From the NCBI GenBank assembly GCA_023266215.1, contig JAHFRQ010000011.1:1735-65734 (forward strand): DNA of 64,000 bases. The letters are read 5' to 3'. Of this stretch, positions 59,027-59,614 are shown in pieces (within the stretch, counting starts at the first letter, position 1; each line of letters starts with the position of its first letter). The notes beneath the pieces are model-generated. The model saw only the letters and a list, made by a program, of their open reading frames with translations, searched no databases and was not told the DNA's origin. The DNA is from Gammaproteobacteria bacterium (GTDB lineage: Bacteria > Pseudomonadota > Gammaproteobacteria > Coxiellales > Coxiellaceae). Made by a program: the position numbers and the translations under genes.

Positions 59027-59614
59027 CGTAATTATTCAGCCCACACAGCAATTAACTAGAAAGTCCCCTCTCCCTTGTAATCAAGGGAGAGGGTCAGGGT
59101 GAGGGTTTCTTGAAAAGAAATCATAAAACACGAGGTTTCTTTTTCAAAATAATTTCGTAGCATGTCTGTTATGAAAACAAAAGAAGAATTAATTCAGTTT
59201 TGCAAAGCGCTTCGTCAAAATAGTACTGACGTTGAAAAAATACTGTGGTATTTTTTGAGAAATAGAAATTTATTAAATTGTAAATTCAGAAGACAGCATC
59301 TAATCGGAAATTATATTGTTGATTTTATTTGCATAGACATTAAGCTTATAATTGAATTAGATGGCGGACAGCACAACTTACGTCAACAATATGATAACAA
59401 TCGCACCAACTTTTTAAACCAGCAAGGGTTTAAAGTATTGCGCTATTGGAACAATGAGCTAACAATGCAGTTAGAAAGCGTAATGAATGATATTGTCAAC
59501 GAAGTTGAAAAATTAAAAATCGATCGCCTGAAAAACCCTCACCCTGACCCTCTCCCTTGATTACAAGGGCGAGGGAACTTTCTAGTTAGTTGATGTGAGG
59601 CGTGAATAGTTACG
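59027..59614 (+). mobile_element. DUF559-endonuclease unit bounded by 82-nt terminal inverted repeats of the family-1 repeat
   Basis: 59027-59108 versus the reverse complement of 59533-59614 gives 74/82 identical by my hand alignment. Each end carries the hairpin CCCTCTCCCTT-GTAATC-AAGGGAGAGGG plus TCAGGGTGAGGG. A single ORF lies inside. Confidence 0.6.
59162..59560 (+). CDS. DUF559 domain endonuclease (Vsr-like PD-(D/E)XK fold)
   Basis: LRQNSTDVEKILWYFLRNR...KFRRQHLIGNYIVDFICIDIKLIIELDGGQH...GFKVLRYWNNE is the DUF559 signature. The last 8 codons (NPHPDPLP) are encoded by the right terminal repeat. Confidence 0.8.
   Translation: MSVMKTKEELIQFCKALRQNSTDVEKILWYFLRNRNLLNCKFRRQHLIGNYIVDFICIDIKLIIELDGGQHNLRQQYDNNRTNFLNQQGFKVLRYWNNELTMQLESVMNDIVNEVEKLKIDRLKNPHPDPLP

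Follow-up and report, generated by a model that had tools for sequence, protein, structure and literature searches.

A DUF559 nuclease gene between inverted BoxC/TMECO-type repeats in a Legionella relative: a candidate nuclease-repeat unit

The DNA considered here, called the window in what follows, is the whole 64-kb stretch of contig JAHFRQ010000011.1 that was analysed, and positions refer to it unless another locus is named. It belongs to an uncultured Legionella relative, which shares 53-55% identity with Legionella species in its LysA-LysC protein. Between the genes for LptG and a PDC-S27 ATPase on one side and the lysA-lysC fusion gene on the other lies a discrete cassette of 586 bp (59028-59613), in which a gene for a 132-aa protein of the DUF559 family is framed by two inverted terminal copies of a hairpin repeat, hereafter the arms. 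This unit is found at several loci, solo repeats share its ends, and across phyla DUF559 genes and the repeat are associated in an oriented and in-frame manner. Our tentative reading, to which we give slightly less than an even chance, is that the cassette is a small selfish nuclease-repeat unit with homing-like spread, DUF559 being the protein partner of the repeat.

The inverted arms around a DUF559 open reading frame (ORF), reported in a preliminary description of this DNA, are indeed present. The two arms (59027-59108 and 59533-59614) measure 82 nt each, are complementary at 74 of 82 positions (90%) and stand 424 nt apart. Each contains a 12-bp hairpin, CCCTCTCCCTTG-TAAT-CAAGGGAGAGGG, which is perfect in the left arm, has one mismatch in the right and is followed by TCA-GGGTGAGGG. 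Of the composite motif GGGAGAGGG-N3-GGGTGAGGG the window has five copies, as opposed to zero in 100 shuffles. The whole cassette, with no strand of its own and delimited by homology to independent copies, consists of left arm, leader, DUF559 gene and right arm. The left arm (59028-59108, + strand) is composed of an outer end A (59028-59049), a linker B (59050-59065), a hairpin with a C block (59066-59074) and a first G block, G1 (59085-59093), and a second G block, G2 (59097-59105), which adjoins the gene, all on the + strand. The right arm (59533-59614, - strand) is an inverted copy of it, with, in + strand coordinates, G2' at 59536-59544, G1' at 59548-59556, the hairpin at 59548-59575 and the outer end at about 59592-59613. 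The gene (59162-59560, + strand), the sole ORF of at least 40 aa inside the cassette, takes its final eight codons and stop (AAC CCT CAC CCT GAC CCT CTC CCT TGA, 59534-59560) from within the right arm. The latter ends at 59614 and the lysA-lysC stop codon occupies 59615-59617, while homology among separate cassette copies stops at 59613.

The leader between the left arm and the ATG (59109-59161, + strand) holds ACGAGGTTT (59130-59138), kept in the closest relatives, and shows neither a Shine-Dalgarno sequence at normal spacing nor a promoter-like site on the + strand; its top-scoring site (10/12) lies on the - strand, at 59147-59120. Promoter-like sites were in general few and weak, 6 being found in the promoter scan against 2.7 expected. 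A search of the cassette in Rfam gave no RNA family and a terminator scan of it gave 0 sites. Neither a recombinase gene nor a gene for a C5-cytosine methyltransferase, the usual partner of Vsr, adjoins the cassette.

Concerning the protein, the match to PF04480 is strong (E=1.6e-41; 141.1 bits, the cut-off being 20.6; 3-108 of the 109 profile positions covered), and DUF559 and MTES_1575 are its only Pfam matches, with no HUH/Y1 or other recognised transposase. The DUF559 protein NGO0050 of Neisseria gonorrhoeae (PDB 3HRL) is matched with E=8e-26 and shows 42% identity in the fold alignment. An AlphaFold2 model (predicted local distance difference test score, pLDDT, 89) finds its best folds in 3HRL, then in the catalytic domain of the homing endonuclease I-Bth0305I (3R3P, the second-best structural match, E=1.4e-4) and then in Vsr (1CW0/1VSR). 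Residues E25, D54, E65, D67, H71 and D78 are invariant in 30 homologues and would fit the Vsr/"EDxHD" catalytic set of Taylor et al. by order and spacing only, not by superposition; the proposed mapping is onto Vsr E25/D51/H64/H69/D97. Between two variants of the cassette gene the proportion of synonymous differences (pS) is 0.14 and that of nonsynonymous ones (pN) is 0.011, with three amino-acid differences and mostly synonymous change otherwise; hence, from a pN/pS of 0.08, the protein is under purifying selection, and the sequence comparison indicates that the gene is functional. The left arm and leader diverge by about 3% between the variants, the corresponding figure for synonymous sites being 14%. 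As a family DUF559 is very large, with 23,783 clusters (50% identity) at E<=1e-3 and 10,584 at E<=1e-10. No known defence system was assigned to the protein, whose only local match in PADLOC is weak (DpdF, E=1e-5).

Besides the arms, three repeats without an ORF are found in the window. The preliminary description had taken all of them as versions of the same element; they do exist, but only one has the outer ends of the cassette. This one, a solo derivative that resembles a MITE (a miniature transposable element with inverted repeats), spans 102 nt (50986-51087, + strand) and combines both cassette outer ends (GTAATTATT...AATAATTAC) with linker B, a hairpin of longer loop and the G2 block; it folds into a single long hairpin (-33 kcal/mol, z=-9.8). 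The TAA stop of the ORF at 50357-50989 is supplied by the first bases of this solo (GTAATT, 50986-50989), which thus abuts or overlaps a gene end as the cassette does at lysA-lysC. The other two, at 38601-38649 and 40439-40487 (both + strand), are nearly identical modules of hairpin plus G2 block that lack the outer ends, run into T-rich tails and are located after genes. All five repeat copies of the window are intergenic or at gene ends.

The hairpin repeat is not new, a point missed in the preliminary description. Judged by its block structure, it is the BoxC/PIT/TMECO "intrastrand triplex" repeat, catalogued since the 1990s (Bachellier 1999; Hoyne/Maher; Holder 2015), and we treat the window copies as a long-loop variant of it. 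The published form is 5'-CCCTCNCCC-N3-6-GGGNGAGGG-N3-GGGNGAGGG, of which 3610 copies were counted in 262 proteobacterial genomes (Holder 2015, PMC4666352). These repeats are tied to local genome instability, no function was reported for them, the authors "never found" an associated mobility function, and earlier work cited there saw no promoter or terminator activity (PMC4666352). In the window all five copies present the C block, G block, N3 and G block, so that the block structure is identical; further likenesses are the intergenic, multi-copy occurrence, often as inverted pairs, the link to local rearrangement, and the fact that flanks of DUF559 genes in other phyla meet the strict published pattern. 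The strict pattern, with a first loop of 3-6 nt, has 0 matches in the window because the first loop is longer there (in the arms 10 nt separate the 9-nt blocks, and in the solos the loop has 19-21 nt); allowing a loop of up to 30 nt gives 5 matches, and the left arm fits the pattern of Holder on the same terms. The module of the window differs also in sitting within longer, lineage-specific arms of 82 nt. Examples of the variant types of the repeat are CCCTCTCCC and CCCTCCCCC.

The cassette is found at two or more further loci. These were obtained by exact-protein look-up in short-read metagenome assemblies of a single ENA study, which come from near-identical populations. In L001 the cassette follows a Sua5/YciO gene and, as a unit of 587 nt, is 98% identical to that of the window over 591 columns; the homology starts with GTAAYTATTCAG, ends with GAATAGTTAC and stops exactly at the outer ends. 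In L086 and L087 a second variant stands beside a SurE-side flank, the left flank of L087 being again Sua5. Contig L004 is 100% identical to window positions 51140-59093, a stretch that takes in LptG, the ATPase and the left arm as far as the G1 block. Past G1 the contig goes on directly with the arm's mirror half and then a TamB flank, forming a perfect palindrome of 105 nt (A-B-hairpin-B'-A', -51.8 kcal/mol). The TamB-side flank with its arm is joined to a full cassette in L001 and to this collapsed palindrome in L004. Hence, one and the same junction exists in a "full" and a "collapsed" form. Outer arms and flanks go together at each locus, whereas the interior is common to different loci, which is the pattern expected from gene conversion or homing.

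It should be noted that the window and L004, identical over 8 kb, split within the repeat, leading to DUF559 and LysAC in the former and to TamB in the latter; this is either a rearrangement breakpoint or a mis-join. The closest relatives, L090 and L091, have the order repeat, gene, inverted repeat with unrelated outer arms. In L091, positions 1-200 and 660-800 hold arrays of A/T-decayed hairpin copies (TCTTTCTTGTACTCAAGAAAGAGA) beside intact repeats, and these look like degraded units. The lineage-specific junction TAACTAGAAAGTNCCCTCNCC has no match in the one-genome-per-species collection, which excludes the genome of the window, and a single match in JGI metagenomes, which carries no hairpin and was taken as chance.

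Since every variant junction was read from short-read metagenome assemblies, all from one study, the occurrence at several loci and in solo or full form could mainly reflect mis-joins across the repeat, and the cassette would then be a single fixed gene. An identical run of 446 nt is common to the window and L001, where a chimeric join is possible, and two contigs, L002 and L003, end inside the gene; some junction variants may be assembly artefacts. As a general account we nevertheless hold this very unlikely. The palindrome of L004, at 105 nt, is shorter than the assembler k of 141, so that single k-mers span it together with unique flank; variants v1 and v2, each linked to its own flanks, have a longest common run of 112 nt, again below k, and their contigs are thus not chimeric between them. 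Moreover, three protein variants lie on three NCBI contigs of 67, 323 and 434 kb, and the cross-phylum survey described below is independent of these assemblies.

A transposition of the type known for repetitive extragenic palindromic (REP) sequences and their associated tyrosine transposases (RAYT), or for a transposase and its MITEs, was the parallel drawn in the preliminary description. Here the nuclease would excise and re-insert the cassette and, acting in trans, the solos, in true transposition independent of homologous recombination. Several observations are in line with it: the gene is widely flanked by inverted copies of its presumed substrate, as in RAYT/REP, solos outnumber full copies 3 to 1 in the window, the 50986 solo has both cassette ends, as a MITE would, copies occupy unrelated intergenic sites 1-15 nt after stop codons, and TnsA shows that a PD-(D/E)XK nuclease can participate in transposition. 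However, TnsA needs TnsB, and in the nuclease, a single domain of 132 aa, no activity for strand transfer or ligation is evident. A target-site duplication is missing too, there being no direct repeat flanking any junction read. The co-segregation of arms with flanks around a shared interior fits gene conversion better than cut-and-paste, and the gene is multi-copy here, against the typical single-copy RAYTs. We therefore consider transposition unlikely. The idea of an autonomous copy with derivatives is thus supported in part, by the discrete multi-copy unit (98% identity in L001), by solos with the same ends and by the full and collapsed forms of one junction; its transposase/MITE part, for which a target-site duplication was looked for and is absent, is left without direct support as to mechanism. 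The accompanying view that no PD-(D/E)XK enzyme had been characterised as repeat-mobilising has to be tempered, given that the Vsr-fold/PD-(D/E)XK enzymes already include the homing endonuclease I-Bth0305I and the transposition nuclease TnsA.

The association of DUF559 with the repeat was surveyed across phyla with one genome per species, taking the best 80 DUF559 loci as ranked by a query that included the repeat-encoded tail. These span Gamma-, Beta-, Alpha- and Deltaproteobacteria, Nitrospirota, Dehalococcoidia, Elusimicrobiota, Melainabacteria and candidate phyla. The double G-block motif reaches 2.53 per kb within 300 nt of the gene, against 0.067 per kb beyond 600 nt, a 38-fold enrichment; it is present at 63 of the 80 loci and on both sides at 39. 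Upstream it favours the + orientation (48 to 21) and downstream the - orientation (44 to 23), and therefore the G2 block faces the gene. In a control for the bias of the query, the motif was kept in 27 of the 36 loci where the tail fell outside the match. In most of the 74 analysable loci the flanks self-align, inverted and/or direct, far above controls; the Legionella anisa unit, for example, has arms of 147 nt, and the flank repeats extracted are canonical TMECO units. Arms of the same locus resemble each other more (0.81) than arms of different loci (0.67, p=1e-11).

The tails of homologues from many phyla are likewise repeat-encoded (PHPDPLP..GEG, PSPQPSP..GERE, ERVRVRG), and repeat-derived peptides lie within the called ORF in 91 of 145 family representatives (50%-identity library). 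The surveyed genes are only about 45-55% identical in protein, and the reading frame of the repeat tail is fixed across phyla. Across phyla, genes of this DUF559 subfamily normally stand in the order repeat, gene, inverted repeat. The expectation that DUF559 homologues generally carry such flanks and repeat-encoded tails was thus borne out, and none of the contrary outcomes named beforehand turned up among those tested. No paper linking DUF559 to BoxC/TMECO repeats was found in PMC open-access and bioRxiv full text, a corpus that leaves subscription journals mostly outside.

Some further observations concern the distribution and form of these genes. In the Elusimicrobiota metagenome-assembled genome of L048 (4813-5563) the unit of repeat and DUF559 is tandemly duplicated, with a direct repeat score of 194.5, and one library protein, P0244, has three DUF559 domains in a single ORF. 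Long DUF559 proteins (P0004, P0025, P0036, P0046, P0109 and many others) have termini that correspond to translated repeat (GEG.., ERVRVRG, PSP.P.P), and these extensions are probably gene-calling read-through across the stop-poor repeat and not real domains. The location of DUF559 genes at contig ends, used as a proxy for multi-copy status, gave a weak signal (8 observed against 3.2 expected, P=0.017). Phage carriage as the main route was rejected, because viral loci are rare and mostly motif-less: 2.9 million viral contigs yielded 18 loci of the subfamily, mostly without the motif.

The annotation "DUF559 domain-containing protein" is 14-fold enriched among genes overlapped by inverted repeats and predicted as targets of programmed inversion (Milman 2023), which lends the association of gene and repeat independent statistical support. 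It would also agree with a different role for the arms, as the sites at which a programmed inversion turns the gene round or changes its 3' end, which the right arm indeed overlaps. However, no recombinase gene stands next to the cassette, and all six junction-crossing contigs (window, L001, L002, L003, L086 and L087) have the gene pointing the same way with respect to its flank. Since the arms bracket the whole gene, inversion would leave the protein and, by symmetry, its context unchanged. An invertible segment is for these reasons extremely improbable.

In Escherichia coli the family is represented by ycjD, which ends inside a BoxC copy (tail ...SPSPQPSP-stop) and is followed by an inverted copy about 50 nt downstream (L088 2397-2860, E. 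coli 88-3493; L093, O157:H7). YcjD and NGO0050 (3HRL) belong to the same DUF559 family as the cassette protein. The gene differs from that of the cassette in being single-copy and syntenic, between sapF and fabI, and in having repeats only on its 3' side. It is present in 3378 of 5426 complete E. coli genomes. The eefRABCD efflux operon is an alternative occupant of the sapF-fabI interval, and no repeat was found at the sapF-fabI junctions of eef-positive E. coli; hence, the alternation of ycjD and eef is uninformative on mechanism. BoxC was counted with a composite query of ycjD and one BoxC unit in a sample of 38 ycjD-positive and 22 ycjD-negative genomes. The median number of further BoxC places was 9 in the former and 4.5 in the latter (Mann-Whitney p=1.4e-6), which fits the published counts of 23 in K-12, 29 in 55989 and 1 in the B2 strain IHE3034 (Holder, PMC4666352).

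These E. coli data bear on the view that there is no enzymatic link at all. The repeats would then be structure-prone and recombinogenic or regulatory elements (terminators, mRNA stabilisers, insulators) that gathered around a small dispensable gene or were at one time fused to it, DUF559 would serve for example in Vsr-like mismatch or damage repair or in restriction-like defence, and the multi-locus pattern would be the outcome of ordinary repeat-to-repeat recombination. E. coli genomes lacking ycjD still have BoxC copies, ycjD is itself stable, syntenic and single-copy, and Holder and colleagues tie the repeats to local instability without any associated enzyme (PMC4666352). In the window, the 38601 and 40439 solos are hairpins with T-rich tails after genes, and the cassette adjoins the candidate defence gene PDC-S27. 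On the other hand, this view leaves unexplained why, at about 45-55% protein identity, the 38-fold enrichment, the fixed G2 orientation, the fixed frame of the tail and the similarity of arms within a locus should all be maintained. The empty terminator scan of the cassette and the lack of promoter or terminator activity cited by Holder (PMC4666352) also speak against it, as does the absence of a cytosine methyltransferase gene next to the cassette. Taking both sides together, the absence of a link is to our mind improbable.

The selfish nuclease-repeat unit with homing-like spread is the reading that we tentatively favour, with DUF559 as the first candidate protein partner for the BoxC/TMECO repeat and the Vsr-fold homing endonucleases as a precedent. 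In this scheme the nuclease would recognise the repeat, either by its sequence or by its hairpin or triplex-prone structure, and would nick or cut there. Repair of the break by recombination with a gene-bearing copy would then carry the gene-bearing interior into solo repeats, and would keep the arms homogenised. Collapsed palindromes and rearrangements would be products of the same breaks.

Several points weigh against this reading. The evidence for a partnership of nuclease and repeat is genomic and circumstantial. Both hairpins are intact in the full cassette, so that insertion does not obviously destroy the target, unlike in classical homing endonuclease genes, and at the junctions there is neither a target-site duplication, as said above, nor a common target motif. 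No clean empty site was found among LysAC relatives, because synteny is lost at 65% LysAC identity; the relative at that level has neither the synteny nor a repeat at the position. Besides the 446-nt run shared by the window and L001, five junction combinations are incompatible with one genome. In the survey, about one fifth of the loci have no motif as defined, and the tail bias of the ranking query is only partly controlled by the 36-locus recount. In E. coli, ycjD is a single-copy gene in a syntenic position, the copy-number difference associated with it is confounded by phylogroup, and BoxC remains where ycjD is missing.

As for the neighbouring region, the ATPase gene (57404-58837, 477 aa, PF01637/AAA_14) is matched by PADLOC as the candidate single-gene defence PDC-S27 (E=3.6e-89) and is framed by an inverted repeat of its own, near-perfect and 37-40 nt long (57230-57269 and 58862-58898). 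A third copy of the core of this repeat, ATTGGTTTGAAGGAACCGCG, is located at 38700-38719, about 50 nt past the solo at 38601-38649. Directly upstream of the ATPase start codon (57311-57401) a unit of about 36 nt, GGATCC.CAAATCGACATTTGT..ATTTACGGATCC, stands twice in direct orientation, both copies having GGATCC at their borders; an operator or iteron is conceivable here. The interval that separates the ATPase gene from the cassette contains TCTGACAAGTT as a perfect tandem duplication (x2), at 58957-58978.

A broader proposal is that DUF559 nucleases are dedicated enzymes of the BoxC/TMECO repeats, making up a second, widespread REP/RAYT-like system across phyla in which recognition of a hairpin or triplex-prone DNA structure, generation and upkeep of thousands of repeats, copying of the gene and genome instability would go together, with YcjD as a domesticated or resident member. 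We regard this generalisation as possible but doubtful. The components are known singly, and what appears new, to judge from the literature searched, is the partnership of nuclease and repeat and the different enzyme class involved. Through the physical link between DUF559 and the repeat, two long-standing puzzles become a single hypothesis that can be tested, and for which YcjD, NGO0050 and the BoxC sites of E. coli are already available. DUF559 is an orphan family of very large size which, the E. coli YcjD and a crystallised Neisseria protein included, has no member with a known role. If the nuclease does act on the repeat, repeats would have, next to RAYT/REP, another enzymatic way of propagating, a new one; this would explain the rearrangement hot spots at BoxC/TMECO repeats as well as the mis-annotated "fusion" ORFs that read through stop-free repeat, and a structure-specific nuclease of practical use might result.

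Among known systems, one close parallel is that of RAYT/REP (REPIN), in which IS200/IS605-like Y1 transposase genes stand between REP hairpins in inverted orientation (Nunvar 2010; Bertels & Rainey 2011, PMC3116915; Ton-Hoang 2012). As there, a small nuclease gene is bracketed by inverted GC-rich hairpin repeats that are also dispersed as many solo or paired copies; repeat variants co-vary with the gene copy, and repeats in E. coli are fewer where ycjD is absent. The differences are that the core of the cassette enzyme is of the Vsr-fold PD-(D/E)XK type and not HUH/Y1, that its gene is multi-copy in this lineage and that its repeat has an extra G block. Insertion sequences and their MITEs share with the cassette the terminal inverted repeats (82 nt, 90%), the short two-ended solo (50986-51087) and the occurrence at several genomic sites, but the cassette lacks both a transposase (DDE, HUH, serine or tyrosine) and a target-site duplication. 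From Vsr proper it is set apart by having no neighbouring C5-cytosine methyltransferase gene.

The other parallel is with the EDxHD homing endonucleases, represented by the Vsr-like I-Bth0305I (Dassa 2009, PMC2677866; Taylor 2011, PMC3239194), which has added N-terminal DNA-binding domains and whose place is within phage genes, inside a group I intron or flanked by split inteins. Common to both are the Vsr-like domain with the proposed E, D, H and D residues conserved, a pseudopalindromic target, which is plausible for the cassette, and an interior that is present or absent at a shared junction. The cassette protein, however, is a bare domain of 132 aa, free-standing, intergenic and rare in viral contigs, and the insertion of the cassette leaves the presumed target unsplit. 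By analogy, the cassette would work in the manner of RAYT/REP and of a free-standing homing endonuclease gene, being a member of neither family.

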